From positions 354,682-404,390 of the forward strand of contig NMRA01000309.1 of NCBI GenBank assembly GCA_002633005.1: a DNA stretch of 49,709 bases. Reading direction: 5' to 3'. The translations under genes and the position numbers were made by a program. The stretch comes from Phoronis australis. Taxonomy: Eukaryota > Animalia > Phoronida. Shown here piece by piece: positions 1 to 48,180 of the stretch. The notes beneath the pieces are model-generated. The model worked only from the letters and a program-made list of their open reading frames with translations. It did not search any database and was not told the DNA's origin. Every line of letters starts with the position of its first letter. Positions within the stretch are counted from its first letter, which is position 1.

Positions 1-1104
1 TGGTCGGCACACCAGTACAGCAGACAATAGATCAACGCTAAGCTCCGCCCACGTGACAGCCATATTTGTTTTGGTCGTCTGTCGTGCATCACAAGTTCGA
101 AAAAATGATTAAAATTACGCTGTAAACAAACAGGTATGTCACATTTTCTAAATATGAAGTAAATATCAGCTTTATTTCTAGTACTTCAACAAAAATTGGA
201 ACATAATGACCACGCATTCTGAACGAAATTTGATCTCAAGTGGCAATCGATGACCGCTTAACTTCAAAGCCGTTTTTCTCGGCTCGTGATTTCAGGATAG
301 TGACACGATTCTCAGGCCTATTTTTCCACAACACGTTGGTCAATTTTAACGAAAGTTGCAAATTTGAAACCCTCTTGGACTGTAGTAAAATCGCGTGCCA
401 GGGTTTTTTGATAAATGGACCAGATTTTTAGTTATTAGACGGAAAGTGACGAAATGACAAAAAGTGGCGTGCTTGCCCCAACTCACACACAAAAAATGCC
501 ACAAAATCAAGATCATAATGATTTTGTACATATATTTGGTATGGATAAGTAGAATATTGCGTAAGGAAATAGTTGATGATGATCCCTGTGCATTTTGAAA
601 AAAAATTCGAGGTAAAATTGGATTTGTTGAAAATTAAAAAATACGATTTTTTAAAAAAACGAATTACAAAAAAACATTTTTTTTTTGATTTTTGTCACTT
701 TCAGAGTCATGTCTAACTAGTTAAAACTCCCTTTTTACTCATTTTAGTTAGGAACCTGGAGATTTGATCAGTGTATACACCTACCTTAATAGAATTTGGA
801 GGGTTGGCAAAACCATTGTCACATTTCTCTGGCCTGATTTTTTCGAATATATGTTTTATCTAGTGCACTTCAGACGGAAACTCAGCGCGGCAGACAAAGT
901 CACTGAAAGCGGAGGTTTTGACGCGTTCTTAAACTTTGCAAACAAGGGAAGAAAATAAAGTGACAATAAGGTTCAAGTATTATATTTTGAAGTGAGTTCA
1001 TGACCCAAGACAATAACTCGTTACCTGTATTGTAATTCAGATTGCTAAACCACTGTCTCGGAGTCCCAGCGTCGTTGCACTCATTGTGATCATCGATCTT
1101 TTTC

Positions 1105-1327
1105 TAAAAGTCGGGGAATCGCGCGTTTCCTTAGCAATAGGCGCTAAATCTTCATTCTTTAAAAGTCGGGGATGGGCGCTTAACCGAGAGGAGGGCGCTT
1201 AACTGGAAATCTTCAAAAATCGCAGGGGGGCGCTTAACCGAGCAGTGGGCGGTTAAATCGAAAATCCACTTAAAGTCGGGGATGGGCGGTTAACTGAGCA
1301 TGGGCGTTAACCCGAACGATTACAGTA
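1105..1327. mobile_element. Right end of a Tc2/pogo-like element: TIR, subterminal repeats and TA
   Basis: About 7 copies of gggcg(c/g)ttaac(c/t)g end in gggcgttaacccgaacgattacag|TA. The reverse complement (tactgtaatcgttcgggttaacgccc) matches 48002-48027 at 24 of 26 nt. The element body probably extends towards the window start. Confidence 0.75.
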
Positions 1328-4300
1328 CATTGTGTATTTATTTCTGAGTTGAAAGGGCCAACTTATCTCTTTCATTAACTGGGGTGTCCTAGTAATCTTA
1401 CAATGTGGGAGTCCAAAGGAGAAATTCTGATTGACAGTGGGTCCAAATGATACATTGGGCATCCTTGCCAGGGCGTCCAGATTAGTGCTAGGACATAGGC
1501 TGCATGAAGGCCTGCGTATATGTAAAACAGTGTCAATTATCATGACCCACATAACTACCGTACTTAGGAAATTCTTGTTAGAGTGCACATTTGCTCAGCC
1601 GACGTTTCTGCCAGATTTAAAGGTACACTTCCTACCTGAAATTTGAACGCAACGTGATGTTTTCTTCACTCAAACAACAGTTTGCGTGTGTAGAACAGCA
1701 ACTGAACAGGGAAGCAGATGACTCAGTCTTCAGCTTCAGTTAAAGGCAGTTATGGCCACAGACACATTATGAGTAGACTTCCAGTCAAGTTATTCGTTTC
1801 ACAGATCTTGCATTCTACACTTTCATCTCAACTGAGGTGCACATCGAGGTGTTGCAAACACACAATTGCCCAAACATAAAAAGTCCACCATACCTAATTC
1901 CAACAGTGTTAAACATAGCTTGAAACCATGGTTAGACATAAGATTAGCTCAATAGTCCTGAAACTGGACCAGATACACTACACTATAATCTGCACAAGTA
2001 CAGTCAATGTCTTTCTTTGAATGTGATCTTCGCAACAACTGTACTTGTATACTTTGCACATAAACTGCTGGTAAAAAACATTACTAAGAGCCTATATGTA
2101 GTTTTAAGACAAATACCCTAAAATTCCGCAGACAATAAATCTTCTAATAACAGCCAAGTAGGTTTTTACAAGAGAGCAGTCATTTATTTACTAGACCAAA
2201 ACTACAAACAGAAAAATCACTGTTGAAAATCGCTCACTAACGTTATCACAGCTCCTTATAATTTCATGTTGGTTGCTAAAAAGTAGAAGACTCAAGTTTA
2301 CTGAACACATGGCACTTACCAATTTGGGGGAACCTAATACCCAGCTTGTACTGGAGACTGGCCTCAATGGTTAATTTTAGAAGATTTATAGTACAAGCCA
2401 GGAATTAGCCCATGAATATGCTTCGTTTCCAAAAATTATTTGAAAATGCAACGTTCCTCACTATAATGCAGCAGAATAGACCATGCTGTTATTTTTTCAT
2501 ATAAAGCAGGTCATTTTTCTTTACTTTTCTGCCAATCAGCCTTCATCGCAAACTCTGTGGAAACAATAACATATTAAATGGCCAAAACACCTTTGTAGTC
2601 ATGTCCAGAAAAAACCATTATGATCTTCTGTTTCTTCCATCTTATTAAATGGAACTCTTCAGTTCACTATTTTTGCAGAACCTCAAAACTGTCTTTAAAC
2701 TTGGGAGTACAGATTTTTTCCAAGGTAGTCTCATCTGGTCTACTGCTAGGGCAAAAGACCGCATCAAACACACAGGAAAACATGCACCCAATCCACTAGG
2801 TGGCAGCACTGTAACACCTATTTCTCCAGAATGAAGAGATAGAGAATAAACCCTGTGAAATGATATCTTCGGGGATTTTATATAAAAGTGATCAAGTAAC
2901 GCCAAAAAGCTTGTGTGTAAGCATCACTTTGATTCTCATTAAGAAATCACAAAGTAATGCTCCAGAGAGCAGTAGGGATTAGTGAGTTAAATTTGTTGAG
3001 GACTAAAGCACAAGACTATACTGTAAGCAGTCGTCAGATGAATAAATTCAATAAAAAAGCAACTTATTATGACAAACAACAGATATGTGTGTAAGAATTA
3101 AAACAAAAGCTAAGCCTTATGAGAAATTCATTACACCGTCGAACAGTAAGCAAATGCAGTCAACGGAGCATAAAAACATCAATACAACGCTTCATTGATT
3201 CAACGGATAACTAAAAATGACTTTGGTAAAATCTCAGCACTTTCAGACCAAAACAACAAGAACCAAAATTAGCCTTTTTCATTTTTGAAGGCTTTTAACA
3301 TTATTGTGAATGGCCACAGTTTCTCAAACCATTATGTGCAGGAAGCTGTGGTATAGAACTTTAAAACCATAAAATATTTATTTGATGCTACACATCTTTT
3401 GTGAAAAAACTTCCACTTCATTACAGCCAGCTGCTCAGGGAAAGTCACTGGGGATAGTTATCTGTTATCTGATTTTGTATACCTATCACTATTATAGTGC
3501 CTACATTGACTTTCGTAATAAAGGGCTATTGTGGAGATATTTACACTGTAGGCTTGGGTGACAATAGATATACCTCTGCCTGTTACTAAAGACACCACCA
3601 GGGAAAGCACTACTTTCAGCCAAGCTTAGATATTTAAGCCTATTTCAGTTGGCAGTGTTTTTTTAAACATGTAAATATAACTCTTCATTTTGCTCTGATA
3701 GCGTAAGGCACGCTTATCCTAAGTAAAAAAGAAGGCAGCTGTTGGAAGTTTAAACATTTGAAACGTACATAGCAAAAGGATGTTTTACGAATACCATTCA
3801 TAGCTGGGGCCAGAACAGGACATTAATTTTTAAACTTTGTTTGGTGTCTTATTGTGCAAAGGCCATGTATTCTTATAGTATTAAACTTCATTTTGAAGTC
3901 AAGTTCGGACGCCACATGATACATCGGCTCAGTACTCCCGATAATAGAAAAATAAATAACTGGTACGAATTAAGGATACTCCACAAAAAAATATGTAGGA
4001 CCCGTCTACACTCAGATTGTACAGCTCTCTGTTCCCCGTTAGTAGACTCAATCAATCGCGAGTAACACCGCTGTTCACTTTTAGGCGTAACAACATTCGT
4101 ACTTACCTGGGAGCATTTACAAACAACATTTTGCTTCTCCTTACATGAAACTTAGTAGATTATCCTTACGTAAATGATTAAAAATGAGGTTTTCACCAAG
4201 ATGGAGTTGAAAAGTAATAATACAAACAATATTTTCCTTAACTCAGACTCGGATAGTGGATACATCAAGACATTCTTTTTTCATTATCATGCTCGTATTT

Positions 4301-4501
4301 GGATGAATTATCAATTCTTGTAATTGGTTTTCTATAAATAAACTCGTACAAAACGATAATGGATTTGGATTTAAATCTTTTATTTACATATTCTGTGACT
4401 CAAAACGCAACCACTTGGGTACTGAACACAGTTGTCATCAAAACAATCTAACCTGACAAATCTAAAACATGGTTTCAATACATATCATGCAAAAATAATC
4501 A

Positions 4502-4650
4502 TACTGTAAAAATTTCCAAACTTAGGACAGTCTCCCGAATTTCGGACACCTACATGTATATCCAACCCCAAACAGATTTCTTTTTGATTCTGAAATTTGG
4601 GAAATGGTCGAATTTGGCATTCACCACTATTTCTGAAATTTTGGACTCGT
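4502..4650. mobile_element. Left-end remnant of a second TA-flanked (Tc2/pogo-like) family with aatttcggaca repeats
   Basis: TA|ctgtaaaaatttccaaacttaggaca...cgaatttcggacacc. Related starts at ~8219 (tatggtgaaac...cgggacact...tgggacacc) and ~20820 (tactataaaatctcaccaatttcggaca). The same motif recurs at 49500-49686, ending tacgg|TA. Confidence 0.45.
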
Positions 4651-5644
4651 CAATTTTAGCAGCATTGGCCATTATTCTCACATTTCAGACAGTGCGCTTT
4701 TCCGCATGATCAGGACGTAAATCTCGAAGTTCATCAAGCAACTGATTTACACATCATTTAAACCTGCTGCCGATGTAATGTATTGACTGATATCGCAGTC
4801 TATAGTTACCGAGGTGGATCGCGTTTCCTTGACAGTCGAAACATTTGCCAAGCTGGAACGTGGTTTCATTATGCAAATAAACTGTATACTTTCCGACTTT
4901 CACATAATCACCACAGTGTCACGCTTTGTATTTTTATTAACAGCTACTTAATAAGCACCAGTGATGAGACCAATGTTCTGTGACCAAGTCAGTTTTCAGG
5001 TTCACGGCTTCATTTTTTTTTCTGTGAACCTGCAGCCCATTTTACCTTCCTCCCGGCACCCCGACCTTTGCTTTGCCATGAGCCGAATCGCCAAAACGAT
5101 GTTGTTCAGTATTAAGTAAAACAAATTTTGCGAAATACAAAAATCGCTGTTTATGCTCGTGAGAATTTCCTGTCACTGAATTGAAAATCAGCAACAATCT
5201 TTCAAATAATTGGCAAATTTATCACGAGAATGGTGTTCATATAATATGAATAAAGGGTTCTGAATGGAGAATGTTCACATTTGAAACGTTTATTGACAAA
5301 ACTGAACATATGATTCAAGCCATGTAGTGTGCGTATTAATGCGTCAATGTTAACTGGTCACAAGTTTTTCGTTTCTCGGCAAGTTGTGCATCAATTTTTG
5401 CCGTTCGACGACTGCATATGATCGATTTTAATCAAGATTTAGTAATATGGAACAAAAATTTTAAATAAATGTCTAAATGGTTATGTGTGTGAATTCTATT
5501 CTGATGTCCTCTCAAGGCCTTGTCAATGATTACATAATACTGCACAAGCGATTTGTGCTGTTGGCTGGCTCACTGTAGAGCTATTGTTAGGAAGCCTTTG
5601 TCATGAGCCACCATGGGTAACTGGGGAAGGGAAGCAGTCCATCT

Positions 5645-5756
5645 CTGAGCAGACTGAGCAGGCTGAGCAGGCTGAGCAGACTGAGCAGACTGAGCAGACT
5701 GAGCAGGCTGAGCAGGCTGAGCAGACTGAGCAGACTGAGCAGGCTGAGCAGACTGA
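5645..5756. repeat. Minisatellite, 12 x 9 bp (ctgagcagR)
   Basis: Direct tandem units whose last base follows the order A,G,G,A,A,A,G,G,A,A,G,A. Confidence 0.97.
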
Positions 5757-6234: not shown

Positions 6235-6546
6235 CTGTGATACCCTTCACACCACATTAGTGCTGTGATACCCTTCACACCACGTTAGTGCTGTGATACC
6301 CTTCACACCATGTTGGTGCTGTGATACCCTTCACACCACATTGGTGCTGTGATACCCTTCACACCACGTTGGTGCTGTGATACCCTTCACACCACGTTGG
6401 TGCTGTGATACCCTTCACACCACATTGGTGCTGTGATACCCTTCACACCACGTTGGTGCTGTGATACCCTTCACACCATGTTGGTGCTGTGATACCCTTC
6501 ACACCACGTTGGTGCTGTGATACCCTTCACACCACATTAGTGCTGT
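6235..6546. repeat. Minisatellite, 11 x 28 bp (ctgtgatacccttcacaccaYRttRgtg)
   Basis: Head-to-tail units with no spacers; they vary at only three positions. Confidence 0.97.
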
Positions 6547-13136: not shown

Positions 13137-14300
13137 AACAAGAGCAACGCGGAGCGCTGAAATGTGTCCACGAATGCATTGCTAATGGTGTGCTTTTAGG
13201 GCGCAAAAACGTACAATCCATCCAAAAACGGGAACATGCCATATTTCATAAAAATCTGACAAAGGAACTTCAAAGAAACAAAGGAAAACAGAACAAAATG
13301 AAATTGGCACTTATGGGCACAGCGTCTGTTCCATCCGCCTGAAAGTCGTCGTCTGTTATCTTCATATAAATTCACTTAATAAATTTCATAAAGATCCTGG
13401 AGATACAGCTATGAGCGCAAAACAAAACAAAACTACCACTAGGAGGCACCCCAGTAGTCAGTCGCCATCATCAAAAATCCTCTTCACACTGAAAACATAT
13501 ACCCCAATTTTAAAAAACCATCCCTGGAATGATTTTGTCGATCGAGGCATGGACGCTAAAAACAAGATTTGAAAACAGCAAAAATGCCACCAGGTTGCGC
13601 AAAATACCTCGATTCCATCCAAAAACAGGATGATAGCGTCATCTCACCAATAGATGCCTATATTCAAAATTTTATGAAAATCTGTTGGGACTACTGAAGA
13701 TACAGACTGGTAAACATAAAAAACTAAAATTGCCACTAGGGAGCAAACCAGTAGTCAGATCCGTCCAAAGGTAGTTGTCCATTGTCAACATCATATAAAT
13801 ACATTTGCTAAATTAAGTAAAGATCCTGCAAACGGTTTAATAGATACAGCCATGAGCACAAAAAAAACAAAACTGCCACTAGGAAGCGCCACAGTAGTCA
13901 AACTCATCCGAAAATCGTCGTCAGCTGTCCACTTCATAGTAAAAACATACTTGCAAATTTTCACAATTATCCTGTAAGCGGTTTGGTTGATAGAGTAGAT
14001 GCCAAAAAAGAGACTCGAAAACAGCAAAAATGGCCACTTCGGGCCGCAAACTAAGTCGAATCCATCTGAAAATGGAGATAACTTCACCTCATTAATAAAT
14101 GCCTGTATGCCAAATTTTATGAAAATACCTTGAGGACCTTAGAAAATACAGAGGTAAACGTAAAAAAGTAAAACTACCACTAGGTGGCACACCAGTAGTC
14201 AGATCTGTCTGAAAGTTGTCGTCATCCGTTGTTAACATCATATAAATACACATACTAAATTTATTAAAGATCCTGCGAACGGTTTAGGGGATACAGCCAC
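13137..14300 (-). mobile_element. Second copy of the same HINE/Helentron family, 5'-truncated
   Basis: Colinear with 44123-45263. The minus-strand 3' end reads gtggacacat-ttcagcgctccgcgttg-ctcttgtt (subTIR, hairpin, CTTGTT). It has seven internal repeats and lacks the microsatellite and 5' end. Confidence 0.85.
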
Positions 14301-15254
14301 GACTCCACTAGTTCGCCATGTATTTTTAAGGGAAGCACACGATTTTGTCAAAAGTCATAAGGCAAATCAAGATTTAACAAAAAAAATTTTGACCATGTGA
14401 ATGCAGACAGAATGTTAGACTTGCGCTCAATGACAATTTGATTTCTTGCGCTGTTGCTTTTGGTTGAGCAGTTCCATTTCCGTGTCAAGAGTGAGTCATT
14501 AAAAACATGTGTTTAACCAAGACAGGGAACAGCCAGATAAGTTGCTTGTCACAATGGCACGTGTCTGCTTGTACTTGAAACAATGCAACTGTTTCGCCTT
14601 TTATTCTGCCGTACGATGTTACCATCAGTATAGACAAGACTGGGTACCATTTGTCGGTGAATTGTTGAAGTGTGACTTTGAGCCTGACAATGAATACGAT
14701 TCATATGCAGTTTCCGTTTAAAATAATGTTGATAGAGTTTCCGATATTGTTGGTCATGTACCAGCCAAGTGTGCTGGAGTTTTTTTCTTGTTTCATTGCT
14801 CAGGGTGGTGATGTTTCGTGTGCTGTCACGGGAAATCGCAGAAATGTAGACCACGAACTTGAAATTCCTGTCAAGTATCGCTTTCTTGGTTCTTCCATGG
14901 CAATGAAATACATTCAACATTAAGCACTGTGTCAGTGATCGCTACACGCTGACACAAGTTCCATGTGTGAGCCAAAGGGAACAATTGTGAGAATACAGGT
15001 ATTTTACTGCCATAGTAAGGCAAGGTCCCAGTTCCGCTAAAACTGACTGAATGTCACTGAAAGGGAGTTGCACATATTTTGGAATCCTAGTTTTGTGCAA
15101 CAAACGTTCACAAAAGCACAGACACACTTAAGGAAGTCTCGGTCATGAAAAATTGGGGGTGGGCGCTAAGCCGTGTATTTGTGCTTAAAAATGAAAAATT
15201 GAAAATTTCAGGATGTTAAGCCAAACGTGGGCGGTAACTTGGACGAGTACGGTA
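14301..15254. mobile_element. Tc2/pogo-like DNA transposon remnant (right end only) carrying the HIRAN pseudogene
   Basis: Ends tgggcggtaacttggacgagtacgg|TA (TA 15253-15254). The reverse complement taccgtactcgtccaagttaccgccc resembles the TIR at 48002. Subterminal gtgggcgctaagcc at ~15160. The left boundary is inferred from where Helentron similarity stops. Confidence 0.6.
14554..14923 (+). pseudogene. Stand-alone HIRAN-domain gene, disrupted by one stop and one frameshift, inside a Tc2/pogo-like element
   Basis: Joining the ORF fragments gives MARVCLYLKQCNCFAFYSAVRCYHQYRQDWVPFVGELLKCDFEPDNEYDSYAVSV*NNVDRVSDIVGHVPAKCAGVF/SCFIAQGGDVSCAVTGNRRNVDHELEIPVKYRFLGS. The pattern EPxNxYDxxAVxV...VGHVP is the HIRAN signature of Rad5/HLTF. 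TAA at 14719-14721; +1 frameshift in the T7 run 14780-14786. Confidence 0.8.
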
Positions 15255-17648
15255 ATTTATCATCAAACATCCAAACTTTACGCGACTGACTTCGGTAAGT
15301 TGGCCAACCGAACTTTGTAGGCTATGGTACGTTCAAAATTTCTATAAATCCGAAACAGCGAAATAAAACAACTCGTTTGTTTAAAAAATCAATGTATTTG
15401 TAAGGGTTTGCATAGAATTTTGATGATTTACTGGTGTAAATCGATGAAGTCAAGCGATAAGCTGATATGAGTAAGCGTCTTCATAACTGCTGAACAGACT
15501 GTGTTAGATCCTATGACGTCATCAGTTAATTTCAATACCTCCATCTGCTGTCTGTTGTCAGGTAAAAGAACTGAACTTGCTGTTATCCAGTGGAACTACT
15601 CAAAAATTAAAACAAAATGCGTTGTTTATTGGTGGCATTCTCATTTAAAGCTGACAAGAGATGACACCAACTTTCAGGCACATGTCACTTACCTTTGTGT
15701 GCTGTAGAAGCAATTTTATTTTTCATTATACCTTTGGTTTTGCATCTTCAGAGTTCTTTTACATTACCATATAACTTTCCATTTTCAGCTTATTCTTAAC
15801 CACGTAATAGCCATTTTCAGTATTTTTAGTTCCATGGGCATCCGCTTATTTATGCGCCAAACAGCTTGAAAATTTACAAATGTGTTTGTGATGAGAAGGA
15901 ATAGGTTCATTTTGGGATGGATGGCTACCCTCTATCTTAACATCCCTTGGTGGTGATTGAATTGTTTATATTCAAATTTGTATCTCCTTCACCCCTAATG
16001 CAGGATCCTTGTGAAATTAGGCAAGTGTTTTCCTATGAATGTGATAATGACCTATCTACATTCCAATGGACTTGACAACAGGCATAAAGATCAGACTACT
16101 GCAGTGTCTCCAAGTGGCAACTATACCTTTGGACTTCCCTGACTGATTTTCATGAAATGTGAGAAAATGTGTTTTGCATTAGGCAGATGATGGCACCATC
16201 TCAGTTTCAGATGGGTAGGACATATTTTGCACCACCTATTGGTCATTTTATGATACTAATAAACATACCTCAAATCATACTATTTGCACTGTAGTTGTAC
16301 ACGCATTTCAATAACGATGCCCTTGTTTTATAATGAAGTTATATTTAACAGGTTTTTGAAGTTCCAAAAAGGAGCAACTCCAAATTAGGATGAAACCCGT
16401 TTAAAATGATTTTTACAAAATATACTAGTTATGTCCTTTACAGCTTGGTACAATTAAGAAGGTGCTAATTATTTCTTCTGACAAGTACAAAAATATTTGC
16501 CGCTGCAACACATACCCAAACCAAGTCACATTATGGTCAATTTGGAAGGCAATATGGTAGACAACTTGAATTTTATCTTGTCAAATTTCTCAACAAAAAC
16601 AAGTGACAAATATAATTTACTTTTCATTTAGCACAGTTTGCAGTGTACAGCTGTCACTATAGAAACAGTTTAGCATTTGCAAATGACAGACCTGTCTCAA
16701 TAGGGGATGACTAGTGAAGTTTATCCTGTTGTCAGAGGGAAGCAGACCAGGAGATTTCAGATCAATCAATTTATGGCCCATACTGCTGTACAGTAATGGA
16801 AAAAGATGGAATGAATTAATTTGGCAATGTGGCACCAGACAATACTATGGTCTCTTATTATTCAATCGTGGAAATCTGAATCCCCACAAGAGGCATTAAG
16901 ACATACAAGACAATTGGATAAACGCTTTGCACCTAAGATGCAAACTGACTAATCACCAGGGCAGTGTTCGTTACTGAAGACCTTGAGCACAGCATCATTC
17001 ATCCCTGCTTTCTATGGAATAATCTACAAACAGGCAGATCATTGCTCTTGAACTTTGCATGCCTCGACTTTGGGTTAAAAACAACGTAGAGATGAAGTGT
17101 GTAGTTATTCAATAGATTCGCAATAGATTAAACTACGGGTACTTTGTTTAACTTATGCATATTTACAGACAGTTTCAAACGGATTAATAAATGAGAAGAT
17201 ACCAGCGGCTGATACAAAAGCATACAGCACTCACAACATTGATCCCTCTCTCTAGAATGGACTCTCTCACTACAGGCAATCCGCAAAACACTGATTTGAA
17301 TGAAATAACCAGCCTACCCTCTACAATGGACTCCTCCAAAACTCTGGTCAGTGGTGCCCAAGTGATCAGAGTGTATAAATACCAAGAACACAGTTGACAT
17401 TGTAGAATTTTGTCAGTTCATCATTGCTGGTATCTCACAGGAACATCTCACCAAGAAGATAAATATTAACTCATCAGTCTTATTATTTTGAAGGTGATCC
17501 AATGACAGCGGACTCCACGTTTTAGATTCACATCTTCGGCTGTGCAAAAAGCTTCTTCCAATGGAATCACAGAACTAGGCTGTATACATAACGTGTAAAA
17601 ACACAGCAAAGAACAGAACCACATAGCAACTTGCTGCGCAAAGATAAA

Positions 17649-34565: not shown

Positions 34566-37518
34566 GGATCTTGTCTCTTTGAACTTTCAATGTGTCCATA
34601 TTATGGTACGGATCAAGAAAACGGTAATACCAAAGAAATGGGAATCAAGAAAAAATAATTTTCAGTTGTACACTTCCAGACTGAGGTTTTAATTCACAAC
34701 AGACTTTTTCCGCCAGGTATAACAAATGTACGTCTGCTTCGATGCAAGACGAAGTGGCATAACAACTGGGCACCAAGCTCAGAGACCAGGAGTGAGAAAC
34801 ACCACTGCACCATTTTGTTCAAGGACAACTTGACTGTCCTCTGGTTACAAGTCCGGTCTTCACCTATTTTTCCAGTAACCTCAAGACTTCCCTTTTTTGA
34901 AGAGTTTTTGGTTATTGGGAAAGCAAACATCTTGAACTTCAGTAATTCTTGTAAGAATATGTAGATTAAATTGCAGTTGCGAGAATCCCCTACAGTGATA
35001 CGCCATCTAGTGTTTAATCCGGATATCGCTTGCCAGTGAGCAATTAGCAACTTTTGTAAGATGGGAATTTCTCCAATGAGAAAGTGACATACACAGCTTG
35101 CATCAGGGGTTCACCTATATAATGGGTGTTATGAGACCAACTTTGAATGCAACTGACTTACTATATCGGTAATGAGTAAAGAGCAGAAAAGTTCACTTAA
35201 TTAAAGAAAACTGCAAAGTAGTCCTACATGACAACTGCTTTATAAGGTAAAATAGCACATCAAATCTTTTCAACAATTTAGAACAAATTACATTGGACAC
35301 TGAAATTGCATGCGAAACTAATAAAGGAGCACTTAAGTGAAACTTGTAATTGAACTCAGTCAATTGCAAATTGGAAAGGAATTAAATGTAGGCGATAAAG
35401 CGGGCCAATTGTGAGCAAATGGCTGCAATCTGTCTTTGAAATCTGCCCTGAGTAGTCCGCTGGGCCCACTAATAGCAAGCAGTAGACGTTATCTCCAGTA
35501 CCTGATCCAACTCAGAAGGCATCTGGGCAACCATTAATTAAAAACAATGTGAGAATACTAATTATCTAAAAAAAAACAGCATGACATATCTCCTGTCTAT
35601 TGTGTTTCAAGGCAGACTCTGTGGCCACCACTCTCATGTTGCCACGGAAATCAAGTCAAACCCAGTGTGAAAATGGCATTTCCACAAAGCATTGGGAATT
35701 TCAATTAACTTCTCAACATTATGAAATCCCGCTGATGGAGTGAAGAAATCTGGGCTACTTTGCCATGTAGCTAGATGAAATTGACATTGCATTAGTTCTT
35801 GACACGCTTAATAAACCTGGCTTGGCGTAGAACAAGTCCAGTTAAATGCTATGTGTGTCACCAACAGTGATTAAGCACAATAAAACAGATCATTTCTATT
35901 ATCAAGTGCTACTTGATATATTTTGAAAAGCACATTGTAAAATGGAGCGTCTGCCGCCATCTTGGATTAGAATTATCAATAAGCATAAGTGAGTTGCCTG
36001 TGGGTTTACAAATATTGAAAAACTCAAATGTAATGGTTTTAACCTTTCACAACACTTTTTGTCCTCTAGGTACAACTCAATTTCCATCATAAGTGGCAGT
36101 GTATTTGCAAGCAATACAAAATAAACGCCAAAAAATTGCCAATATAGCTGTACAAAACAATTGTAAAGTTATGCAGGACCCTAGAAAAATATGCAAAACT
36201 GGCTGACTTCGGAATATCATATCCCAGAAATGACTGATGGATTTATAACACATCTTCAGATACTATGCTTTACAAGACTTTGGAACAGTGTTTAAAATAT
36301 TCCATTTTGGATGATTTATGTGAAAAAAATCAAAAGTAGCATAAAACGAAATCTAAATGATAATTTAGAAAACAGCTGTGTTTTAAGATTTGATCTTGAA
36401 CATTAGTATCAATAAACTTTGGTCATGTTATTGATAACATTGCGTTGCTATTAATTTACCTTTCTCTTTTGCTAAATTTTGCAAAAAACGCATGGTCACG
36501 TGACCTAATTAATGACAGATTGGTACAAAAGCAAAAATAAAATCCCGCAGGTTTTCCTCTTTTAGAAAATACGTGCTTTTACTGAGTTAACATCTTTAGT
36601 TTTGTACATATTTTGTTACATAGACAGACTTGTCGATAAGGTCCGGCATAATTTACATAACTAGGGCAAAGCCTTATATTGCACTCGCGACATCAGTGTA
36701 CAACTGCAACAAAGAGTACGTTGAAACATTTCAAGTGTGCTCACACACTTGCCCGGTATCGTGCAATAATTAAACTGTGTGAAGTGGTAAGGACGTGACC
36801 CCAGCACAGGGTTAAAGTCACGTGACCAGACATAGTCTTAATGCATTTCTTATGTTAGAGTAAAACAAGTGGTCAGATTAAACCCAGAGGAGTACAATGC
36901 TGGAGAACATAGGCAGTATAACGACTTTGATAATATGCATGCAAACTTCTATGCGGACCTCAGTGGACAACCTTTAACGCTTCGATAACAAACCCAGCAA
37001 TGGTCGCACAGAAAAGGTTAAGCCTGTGACAATAGTATAACAGAGAACTAGAAATGACACGACTTCCTTAAACCTGTTCTACACCATACTCTCTAATCAA
37101 TGACAAACTTGATTTAGAGCTCAGGTCTGGACTTAATCCTTACTCAGAGGTTATTCCTGGGCTAAACAGAACTGGAAGGTCGTTATAGTGCGGCCATTGA
37201 TGCCAAGTGCATAAAATGACTGGACCTAACGAGCCAACTTGTTGAACCTGGTCTCGAGCACAAATAAACTGCCATGATCAGAAGTTACATCAAATGTTTG
37301 TAAAGAACAAGTTGAGACCAATTTCATATATGCAAGCGGTCTAAATTAGAAGTAATTTTTCATAAAGGTGGGCAACATTAACTAGTCAGGTCCTAGTACT
37401 AGTAGTGACCTCTCTGGCACACCTCACGTACTGTTACAAATACAAGAGCATCATTTATAGAGTAGCTACTTCGTTTTCTCAACTCATCTTTGTATTGTTT
37501 TCAGAAACATTCTTTGAA

Positions 37519-38997
37519 ATGGCGAATTCGGCTAACGAAACATATGGTGATATCGGAGAAGAACTCATCAATACCACATCATCATCGTGGACGCTTAGCT
37601 GCAGGTGCTTCTCACCAGAAAATTTAAACAAAATGTGGGCTACCCTCAGAAATAGACTAATTGAAAAAACAATGTCTCCCATTGTGATCACAGTGTTGCT
37701 TAGCATCTATTGGTTGCTTGGGACACTTGGCAATGCACTGGTTATTTATGTGTTTGGAAAAAAGATAAAGCAACGTACGTCAGCACGATGTTTCATAATC
37801 ACGCTCGCTGTTTTGGATTTCCTAGTTTGCCTCCTAGTCATTCCAGGCGAGCTCTTTGACTTGTGGTTTTTCCCATTTGGAGCCGACTTTGTGTGCAAGG
37901 GGTATGAGTGGATGCGTCAGAGCATGATCCCCGTCACAGCGTTCATACTGGGCGCCATTGCATTTGACCGCTACTTTCTCATCTGCAAGGCACCAGCGAC
38001 CATCATCACACCGAGAATTGCCAAGATTATCATAGCAGCACTGGTGGTTATCGGTGCATCAATGGCCATATTGCCAACATTGGCGTTCTCGGTCTACGTG
38101 CAGCGCGGGCCGACATGTAACAAACTCTGTTACTACGGACAGTGCAAGACCAACTATCACCTGATCGGTCCTCATATGGTGAGTCACTACTTTTCCCTCC
38201 TCACCACCATGTACGCCATTGTAACCGTGACCATCAGCATCTTATACGCGTTGGTGTTTGTTGCAGTACGCCGTCGTAGTCAGCGGTGGGGCCACAACCG
38301 TTTGAGTGTGGCAAGGCAGGTTGTCAGCTACCACGTGTCTAAGTGCGACAATTCGACAGTGACCACTAATATTCGCACCAAGACCAGACCGTCCAAGACA
38401 GAGCAGTGTGATGATCTCATCAATGGCAATGACCCACAGACGAAGTTAATACCAGAAGACCACCACAAAGAGACCAACAAATACGAACCCGAGGCCAATG
38501 GGAAGCTGAAGCCAACATCAAACAACAAAGTAGCGATGACTATAGAATTGGCAGAGGATGAGGAAGGCTACTGCGATGATGACAGCATAGGGACAAAGCT
38601 TTCCTCCCTCGCCGACAACACCACGGAGACGCAACCCACTACTCCCCTGACAGTCGACCCAAAGGACACAGAGCAGGATACAGCCAACAGCGAAGACGCG
38701 TCACACACTCGTCACCGCAGTAGTCCCGAAGTAAAAACAGCTCAAATCTTATGTTTGGTGACAGCATGCTTCGTGCTGGCCTACCTTCCACTGTTTTTGG
38801 TATACTACTTGAACATACAGGACTCGAGGCAGGTGCACCCACTTCACAATAAGAATGTAGGCATGGCATTACTGTATGTTATTCACTACACTAATCACGT
38901 AGTCAACCCATTTATCTACGGCTTCATGAACAGACACTTTAAGTCAGAAGTGAAAAAGATGATCACTGCTTGTCGTAACCGCAGAGCTCGCTTTTGA
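37519..38997 (+). CDS. Class A (rhodopsin-like) GPCR, peptide/orphan receptor type (CCK/orexin-receptor-like in appearance); main coding exon
   Basis: Only long ORF in the window (37405-38997). It has seven hydrophobic segments with class A motifs: GN in TM1 (LGTLGNALV), LAVLD in TM2, WFFPFG...C in ECL1/TM3, DRY, FVLAYLP in TM6 (variant of CWxP), NPFIY in TM7, and helix 8 FKSEVKKM followed by Cys. N-glycosylation sequons NET and NTT lie in the N-terminus. The track's GTG start is probably intronic: a pyrimidine tract plus AG (tttgtattgttttcag, AG 37503-37504) lies 14 nt before ATG 37519. Confidence 0.93.
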   Translation: MANSANETYGDIGEELINTTSSSWTLSCRCFSPENLNKMWATLRNRLIEKTMSPIVITVLLSIYWLLGTLGNALVIYVFGKKIKQRTSARCFIITLAVLDFLVCLLVIPGELFDLWFFPFGADFVCKGYEWMRQSMIPVTAFILGAIAFDRYFLICKAPATIITPRIAKIIIAALVVIGASMAILPTLAFSVYVQRGPTCNKLCYYGQCKTNYHLIGPHMVSHYFSLLTTMYAIVTVTISILYALVFVAVRRRSQRWGHNRLSVARQVVSYHVSKCDNSTVTTNIRTKTRPSKTEQCDDLINGNDPQTKLIPEDHHKETNKYEPEANGKLKPTSNNKVAMTIELAEDEEGYCDDDSIGTKLSSLADNTTETQPTTPLTVDPKDTEQDTANSEDASHTRHRSSPEVKTAQILCLVTACFVLAYLPLFLVYYLNIQDSRQVHPLHNKNVGMALLYVIHYTNHVVNPFIYGFMNRHFKSEVKKMITACRNRRARF

Positions 38998-44122: not shown

Positions 44123-45826
44123 CAATGAGCAACGCTGAGCATTGAAATGTGCCCACGAGGGTAATGCAAATGGTGTGCTTTTAGGGTTATTTATTTGTAT
44201 CATAAAAATGGCCACTAGATGGCGCAAAAACAGGAACATGCCATATTTCATATAAATCTCTAAAGGAATTTCAGAGCAACAAAGGAAAACAGAATAAAAT
44301 GAAATTGCCACTAGTGGGCACAGTGTCCGTTGGATCTGCTTGAAAGTCGTCATCTGTTGTTAACTTCATATAAATACACTTACTTAATTTAATAAAGATC
44401 CTGCAGTGGGTTTAGGAGATACAACTATGGGCGAAAAACAAAACTACCACTAGGAGGTGCCATAGTAGTCAGTCACCATTATCAAAGGTCGTCTTCACAC
44501 TGAGAACATGTATGCCAATTTTCAAATGATTTGGTCGATACAGGGGTGGACGCCAATAACAAGATTTGAAAACAGCAAAAATGGCCACTAGGTGGTGCAA
44601 AATACCTCGATTCCATCCAAAAATAGAAAGATAGCGTCATCACACCAATAGATGCCTATATTTTATGAAAATCTGTCGAGGACCTTTGAAGATACAGAGT
44701 AAAAAACTAAAATTGCCACTAGGGGGCACAGCAGTACTCAGATCTGTCCGAAAGTCATCGTCGCCCATAGTCAACATCATATAAATATACTAGTTAAATT
44801 AAGTAAAGATCCTGCAAACAGTTTAGAAGATACAGCCATAAGCCAAAAAAACTGCCACTAAGAGGCGCCCCAATAGACGAAGTCATTAGACAATCATCTT
44901 CAGTCGTCCACTTCATAGTAAAAACATATATGCCAATTTTCATAATTATCCTGAATACGGTTTGGTTGATAGACGAGTGGACGCCAAAAATGGCCACTAG
45001 GTGATGCAAACTAAGTCGAATTCACCTGAAAACAGAGAGATAGCGACACCTCATTCATAGATGTCTATATTTAAACTTTTATAAAAATACGTTCAGGACT
45101 TTTGAAGATATAGAGGTAAACGTAAAAAAAATAAAATTGCCACTAAGTGGCAAACTGGTAGTCAAATCTGTCCGAAAGTTGTCGTCGTCCGTTGTTACCA
45201 TCATATGAATATACTTACTAAATTTCATAAAGATCTTGCGAACGGTTTATGAGATACAGCCATAGGCGCAAAAAAAACTGCCACTAGGAGGCGCCACAGT
45301 AGTCAAAGTCATTGGAAAATCATCGTCAGACGTCCACTTCATAGCAAGAACATAAATGCTAATTTTCACAATCATCCTTTGAGCGGTTAGGTTGATAGTG
45401 GGGTGGACGCAAAAAAACAAACTCGAAAACAGTAAAAACGGCCACTAGGTGGTGCAAAACTACATCGAATCCATAAGAAAACAGGAGGATAGCGTGCCTA
45501 CATACCAAATTTCTTGAAAAACCGTTTAGGTCTTTTGAAGATACAAAGGTAAACGTAAAAAACTAAAATTGCCACTAGGAGGCGCACCGGTAGTCGGATC
45601 CGTCCAAAAGTTTGCTCATGCCGTCCCATTCATGAAAGCAACATATGTGCCAAATTTCATGAATGTAAGTCAAAGAGTTTTGGTGATAGAGCAGCGGACG
45701 CCAGACATCGGGCGGACGGACACCGCACGGACGGACACCGCACGGACGGACGGACGGACGGATGGACGGACGGATGGAGATGACGGCATAATTCGTCCAC
45801 ATATAAATATGTGGGCGCATAAAAAA
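44123..45826 (-). mobile_element. Non-autonomous Helentron (HINE/DINE-1-like), apparently complete
   Basis: Read on the minus strand: 5' TTTTTTATGCGCCCACATATTTATATGTGGACG (subTIR plus stem-loop, ~45795-45826), then a (GTCC)n microsatellite (~45713-45777), about 11 internal ~140-bp tandem repeats, a 3' subTIR gtgggcacat, a short hairpin and a CTC(A)TTG end. This is the order of parts in Drosophila DINE-1. Confidence 0.85.
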
Positions 45827-48001: not shown

Positions 48002-48180
48002 TACCGTAAACGTTCGGGTTAACGCCCTGGGCGGTCAAATTGGCAAACCCAAAAAATCGGGGGTGGGCGGTTAACCAGACATGGGCGCTTAAACGTGAAA
48101 TTTCAAGAAATCCAGGGTGGGCGGTTAACCGAACATGGGCGCTTATTACGACAGACAACCGCCCTGGGCGGTTAATCTGA
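48002..48180. mobile_element. Left end of a Tc2/pogo-like element (same family as 1105-1327); the body probably continues rightwards
   Basis: TA|ccgtaaacgttcgggttaacgccc followed by about 6 tgggcg(g/c)ttaa repeats. CCGTA termini with TA target and subterminal repeats are typical of C. elegans Tc2-like elements. Downstream DNA is CpG-richer than the background. Confidence 0.75.

Follow-up and report, generated by a model that had tools for sequence, protein, structure and literature searches.

Transposons of the IS630-Tc1-mariner/pogo group are standard one-protein elements which leave the handling of their break to the host, and cutting by Tc1/mariner/pogo transposases leaves short 3′ overhangs both at the donor break and at the excised ends. 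Passer elements (DD35D, pogo superfamily; PMC7386202, PMC9976928) are described as single-ORF in the available part of Wang 2023, where fish Passer transposases were active alone in human cells (PMC9976928), and the available part of Gao 2020 mentions one or two ORFs encoding transposases (PMC7386202). Additional genes have been reported for ciliate Tec/TBE elements, which combine an IS630-Tc1-mariner transposase with extra ORFs (Dupeyron 2020, PMC7325037, in part), and Ginger1/Mutator are cut-and-paste elements with a SUMO/ubiquitin-type protease proposed, in the part of Bao 2010 at hand, to act on repair (PMC2836005). [quoted passage not shown]

Here, a remnant from Phoronis australis and its relatives in other genomes show that some pogo-type elements carry a HIRAN gene of their own. 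Passer is described with a single ORF, as opposed to two genes in 11 relatives of the present element, the window copy being without transposase; the element was not assigned to Passer because this single-ORF feature is lacking and our transposase tree is without reference transposases. The HIRAN protein resembles that of HLTF/Rad5 (PF08797) in profile match, fold and N/D/H pocket residues, but it is stand-alone or Ulp1-fused, has no SNF2 or RING domain, is transposon-encoded, shares ~20% identity and has apparently lost Y72. The extra ORFs of Tec/TBE, as far as that article was available, encode a recombinase or a zinc-finger protein or are of unknown nature, and are not HIRAN, and these elements differ further in their DD34E triad and longer TIRs (PMC7325037). 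The Ginger1 protease is fused to the transposase according to the part of PMC2836005 at hand, whereas here the protease, when present, belongs to a separate gene, behind HIRAN, and is missing from the window's family. A literature search outside Repbase, Dfam and subscription journals found no paper pairing HIRAN with pogo; judged by title, none of the papers retrieved for the HIRAN domain and transposons dealt with eukaryotic DNA transposons, and those checked for HIRAN with Ulp1 were unrelated in the parts available. The word ‘HIRAN’ is absent from the main texts of Gao 2020 (PMC7386202), Dupeyron 2020 (PMC7325037) and Wang 2023 (PMC9976928). In the literature covered by this search, a HIRAN second gene does not figure among the parts of pogo elements, which normally have one gene.

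A HIRAN pseudogene at one transposon end

The window, i.e. the whole stretch of P. australis DNA analysed (49,709 nt; contig NMRA01000309.1), is repeat-rich and mostly 30–45% GC. We read positions 14301–15254 (+ strand, 954 bp), delimited by multi-copy depth and sharp edges, as the right-hand remnant of a pogo-type (CCGTA/TA) DNA transposon whose left part is lost. Two + strand ORFs in the ORF list, 14503–14721 and 14669–14923, join into a peptide with the signature EPDNEYDSYAV...VGHVP when X is placed at the stop codon 14719–14721 and at a seven-T run at 14780–14786 (+). From the ATG at 14554 the read-through of 14554–14923 (+) gives a product of ~122 aa, intronless and without a Ulp1 domain after it; the first-pass annotation had joined the two ORFs over one stop and one T-run frameshift into an intronless HIRAN protein of ~120 aa. 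The check it had called for, a comparison of the repaired peptide with Pfam HIRAN (PF08797), returned a match of 29 bits (E 9.6e-07), above the gathering cut-off of 24.7. In the window copy, the family profile matched with positions 5–66 in one frame and 67–118 in the next, which fixes the place of the frameshift. A 324-nt contig from a sequencing run, which may be the assembly's own source, equals 14494–14817 with zero differences, so that both breaks, stop and T run alike, are to be taken as real DNA and not assembly errors. The stop is private to the window copy, since other copies read C at 14719 (four contigs, depth 166/213 in run X2, the remainder being the window copy). With a stop and a frameshift, the HIRAN gene in the window is dead. 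Among the differences listed between window and family (40 of 69), 12 of the 25 that fall within the ORF affect third positions (p 0.09). Over the window HIRAN, raw RNA reads are few, from both strands and mostly other copies', and bear neither way on expression. A word-index search with the read-through HIRAN peptide gave no match, and neither did Rfam anywhere in the window.

The last stop of the HIRAN gene lies 331 bp from the element end (~330 bp in the first-pass annotation), which consists of CCGTA plus TA at 15248–15254. The right TIR starting CCGTA occupies 15225–15252 (− strand), its inner limit being inferred from the 25–28 bp TIRs of relatives. The TA at 15253–15254 is a likely target-site duplication whose left copy is lost; TA flanks 11/11 TIR-bounded relatives, but the search pattern required TA. 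The TGGGCG repeats reported earlier amount to two copies near the end, one subterminal at 15160–15165 (+) and one inside the TIR at 15228–15233. A 5-base terminus is by itself weak evidence of an element. No second TIR was detected in the 49,709 nt, so that the end at 15254 stands unpaired and this locus shows no TIR pair and no TA duplication, a limit left unstated in the earlier reading. Family profile scans of the window detected no transposase remnant, and no Ulp1 remnant was detected there either.

Read depth sets 14302–15254 apart as a multi-copy family, distinct from both neighbours, in line with the earlier reading: summed contig depth is ~200–5600 against ~46 for the window copy, a ratio not to be taken as a copy number. 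The depth minimum falls over the HIRAN core, part of which many copies skip. Thirteen contigs in run X2 share other sequence left of 14301 that is absent from the window, where an unrelated high-copy repeat of ~430-bp units (13142–14299, +; 78% match to 44127–45262, recognised from depth and loose ends) is cut at 14299 and abuts the remnant. The junction (14299/14301) is spanned by a contig from another sample, and a deletion joining remnant and repeat is the simplest reading. No DNA-level relative of the window element was present among the loci collected.

Several other features of the window were recorded. Positions 13142–14299 and 44127–45700 belong to a high-copy interspersed element with ~430-bp tandem units, and 14200–14300 attracts abundant RNA reads, nearly all in one direction. 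Another high-copy repeat (15271–15627) starts just right of the element's TA. Two more CCGTA-type ends, with ~54-bp GGGCG repeats, are found at 1161–1327 and 48002–48170; they are alike each other, loosely like the end at 15254, and without HIRAN or transposase match. An intronless class A GPCR (rhodopsin-type) ORF occupies 37366–38997 (+; 7tm_1, 114.7 bits), and tandem arrays lie at 5645–5756 (9 bp, 12 copies) and 6235–6546 (28 bp, 11 copies).

Two-gene relatives and their distribution

A 65-aa piece of the window HIRAN matches 650 clusters at 50% identity; among the best 150 of these 650, 141 are no longer than 200 aa, and of ten clusters whose names were sought, one is named, as an uncharacterised protein of Amphimedon. 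When queried with a homologue, the Atlas returned HIRAN clusters of which the first is mostly eukaryotic, with Porifera commonest, and the next two are half or mostly viral; viral contigs yielded no relative and no match to the TIR. All 47 homologues of at least 325 aa consist of HIRAN plus an Ulp1-like domain, a fusion absent from the earlier reading. The His-Asp-Cys triad with Gln of this domain is largely kept in these relatives of the window protein (H 45/47, D 46/47, Q 44/47, C 44/47), and Pfam Ulp1/Peptidase C48 was above cut-off for 3/7 ORF pieces of relatives. Pfam HIRAN was matched in the relatives L057 (32.3 bits) and L063 (39 bits; cut-off 24.7); in these two, as in L018, L055 and the window's family, HIRAN stands without Ulp1. 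The window HIRAN is closest to that of L057 (44% identity against 24–42% for others, a thin margin). Ulp1-like matches were also seen at L105:3406–5226, in a control region that has neither HIRAN nor a pogo transposase.

Two sets of loci were analysed. The first was searched with a six-sequence sub-clade (A3) and leans to the convergent type; from its 23 loci, L023 was dropped as a false match and L016 and L022 gave no profile match, leaving 20, and in 11/20 a pogo transposase shares the contig, which is often short. The second consisted of 40 of the best-scoring, and not already collected, among 99 profile matches in five prokaryote-labelled assemblies, with 20 control regions from the same contigs. 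These assemblies (G001–G005) are labelled as prokaryotic MAGs, yet they contain long contigs with animal-type transposons and are likely host DNA. The first-pass annotation had asked whether homologues lie between CCGTA TIRs: a TA-CCGTA/CAGTA TIR pair, TA being part of the search pattern, encloses 23/40 HIRAN matches versus 0/20 control centres (p 4e-6; enclosure covers 1.1% of control bases), the 23 including several copies of the same short families so that counts are not independent. The pair was undetected around the other 17/40. A transposase lies within 3 kb of 8/40 HIRAN matches versus 0/20 controls (p 0.04), two of the eight being outside the same element. Most TIR-enclosed matches are 0.5–0.7 kb deletion derivatives, and many such derivatives (L059–L091) keep part of HIRAN and are without transposase.

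Eleven TIR-bounded elements of 2.4–3.5 kb carry both a HIRAN gene and a DDE_1 pogo transposase, which answers the question raised earlier of whether homologues accompany DDE_1/HTH CENP-B-type transposases; by Pfam, it is in these relatives, not in the window, that DDE_1 occurs with an HTH_Tnp_Tc5/CENP-B-type domain. A DD35D triad, searched with the spacing fixed at 35, fits 9/15 transposase fragments of relatives. The two genes are convergent in nine elements (six with Ulp1, three without), tandem in one (L057) and divergent in one (L063). L057, which is arranged like the window copy, is 2550 bp long with 25/25 TIRs and both ORFs open, and its HIRAN match ends 274 bp from the 3′ TIR. The HIRAN 3′ end of L063 also faces a TIR, for which reason a tandem order as in L057 and a divergent one as in L063 are alike possible for the window's family, in which, judging from this arrangement, the transposase very probably lay to the left.

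The pairing is not universal. By hand count, 11/42 DDE_1 matches in the same assemblies have a HIRAN match within 3 kb (0/19 in G002), and 25 of the remaining 31 loci, scanned with a broader HIRAN profile, showed no adjoining partner; four of these HIRAN-less loci are elements of ~2 kb with one gene and CAGT ends. In a quick tree built from 30 transposases, without named Passer/Tc2 references, 15/15 HIRAN-linked transposases fell on the same side of a branch (support 97), as did five HIRAN-less ones. Transposases of HIRAN-bearing elements are only 19–32% identical to each other, and HIRAN is kept in three layouts. In two loci (L132:4479–5251 + and L131:14328–14813 +) a different tandem ORF follows a HIRAN-clade transposase; it has no meaningful Pfam match, and its Cys and His/Asp motifs are reminiscent of a deubiquitinase. 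The two-component system envisaged in the first-pass annotation thus stands in so far as 11 relatives contain two genes, but not as an obligatory arrangement, given that 31/42 pogo matches lack a detected partner. The HIRAN protein is an accessory and not an obligatory subunit, because Passer transposases from fish need no partner in human cells (PMC9976928, in part).

Fold, 3′-OH pocket and selection

The HIRAN protein of L057, a relative and not the window's broken copy, was modelled with a pLDDT of 91.6. The model aligns with HLTF HIRAN (Foldseek E 3.5e-06, TM 0.73; Z 14.8, rmsd 2.3, 116 aligned) and is predicted to form the same six-stranded barrel with two helices. Of the residues aligned to the HLTF N-x-x-D loop and GH motif, N is conserved in 68, D in 67 and H in 66 of 68 sequences, the D being the equivalent of HLTF D94; the N and H presumably correspond to N91 and H110 in HLTF numbering. 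The Y93 position is H in 26, Y in 19 and F in 5 (H/Y/F in 50/68). At the stacking position of Y72, mapped by inference from the structural-alignment range, V (37) and E (14) prevail and the tyrosine is apparently lost. The transposon HIRAN protein probably binds 3′ DNA ends. A complex prediction for L057 transposase (90–490) and L057 HIRAN scored 0.00 in two runs without alignments and bears neither way.

A dN/dS-type comparison, as proposed in the earlier reading, shows that the HIRAN gene is under purifying selection between subfamilies. Near-identical copies (four pairs) have pS 0.01–0.06 and pN 0.03–0.06 for HIRAN, and subfamily pairs have pS/pN of 0.37/0.09, 0.49/0.10 and 0.61/0.15. For the 36 pairs of nine matched elements, pS/pN is 0.81/0.33 for HIRAN versus 0.79/0.38 for transposase. 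This pattern is that of a gene which is under selection as long as elements move and which decays once they have inserted. Across all elements, HIRAN and transposase distances are correlated (rho 0.52, p 0.024); among the convergent ones they are not (rho −0.09, p 0.65), and because of this co-evolution or co-phylogeny is not claimed. Taken together, the window locus is the dead right-hand remainder of an element from a pogo-type family, and the intact relatives of this family possess a second gene, of HIRAN fold and under selection.

Candidate roles of the HIRAN protein

In the best overall explanation, which we hold with slightly less than even confidence, the HIRAN accessory would bind 3′ overhangs and bias the way the donor break is repaired, to the benefit of the element. 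The protein would grip the free 3′-OH ends produced when the element is excised; end-joining of the capped donor break would be delayed, and the delay would favour gap repair from the sister chromatid, by which the element is restored. In fused forms, the Ulp1-like protease would be delivered to the same end, where it could strip SUMO-like marks off repair or silencing factors. That the protein acts on transposition intermediates is itself plausible but slightly less likely than not.

It is unlikely that HIRAN acts instead as a targeting factor which, by binding nascent 3′ ends at replication forks or sites of repair, directs integration or sets excision to S phase, and does not cap the break of the element itself. 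HLTF uses this fold and pocket at the primer 3′ end of stalled forks (PMC5773155, in part), which speaks for such a role, whereas a transposase fusion occurs in 0/47 long homologues.

An equally unlikely reading is that of an anti-host or regulatory protein which, by protein contact or, in fused forms, de-SUMOylation, blunts silencing or tunes the transposase, end binding being secondary or lost. The retention of Ulp1-like catalytic residues in 44–46 of 47 homologues would fit this role, as would the recurrence of Ulp1/OTU domains in Ginger1 and Mutator elements (PMC2836005, in part), the prediction that bacterial HIRAN proteins (HipI) are antitoxins (PMC11706625, in part), the apparent loss of Y72 and the different second ORF beside a sister transposase. 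Against it, HIRAN occurs alone in the window's family and in L057, L063, L018 and L055, and is thus the constant part, and the 3′-OH pocket residues are the best-kept HIRAN positions.

Still less probable is a passenger role, in which a captured viral or host HIRAN gene would be of no service to transposition. In two look-alike clusters (Atlas rows 2 and 3) half or most of the HIRAN members are viral, and most pogo elements do without HIRAN, but pN far under pS between subfamilies, on par with the transposase, and the persistence of the gene in three layouts across such divergent transposases argue against it. That the window HIRAN is a fragment of an HLTF/Rad5 gene, or lies beside the TIR by accident, is very improbable: only one end and no transposase are present in the window, but the peptide is intronless, it gives only E 1.2 to HLTF HIRAN, and hence is not an HLTF piece, versus 3e-9 to the transposon family, SNF2/RING domains occur in 0/47 long homologues, and contigs of other copies span HIRAN and its flanks. 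The outcomes that the first-pass annotation had named as contrary to its proposal (absence of a HIRAN match, single-copy homologues, HLTF exon fragments) thus differ from what was found.

The pogo transposons of animals may include a broad and so far unrecognised branch that is two-gene, its own 3′-end-binding HIRAN protein, often joined to a SUMO-type protease, seizing the breaks which the transposase makes and steering host repair to restore or multiply the element, as a dedicated handler of DNA ends; we put this forward tentatively. The window copy is itself dead and contributes one further host and one further family. If the proposal is true, many ‘uncharacterised HIRAN-domain’ predictions in invertebrate genomes are transposon genes. 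A selected HIRAN partner would make break handling testable with two short genes, those of L057, which is intact; it could also be relevant to gene-delivery tools based on Passer.
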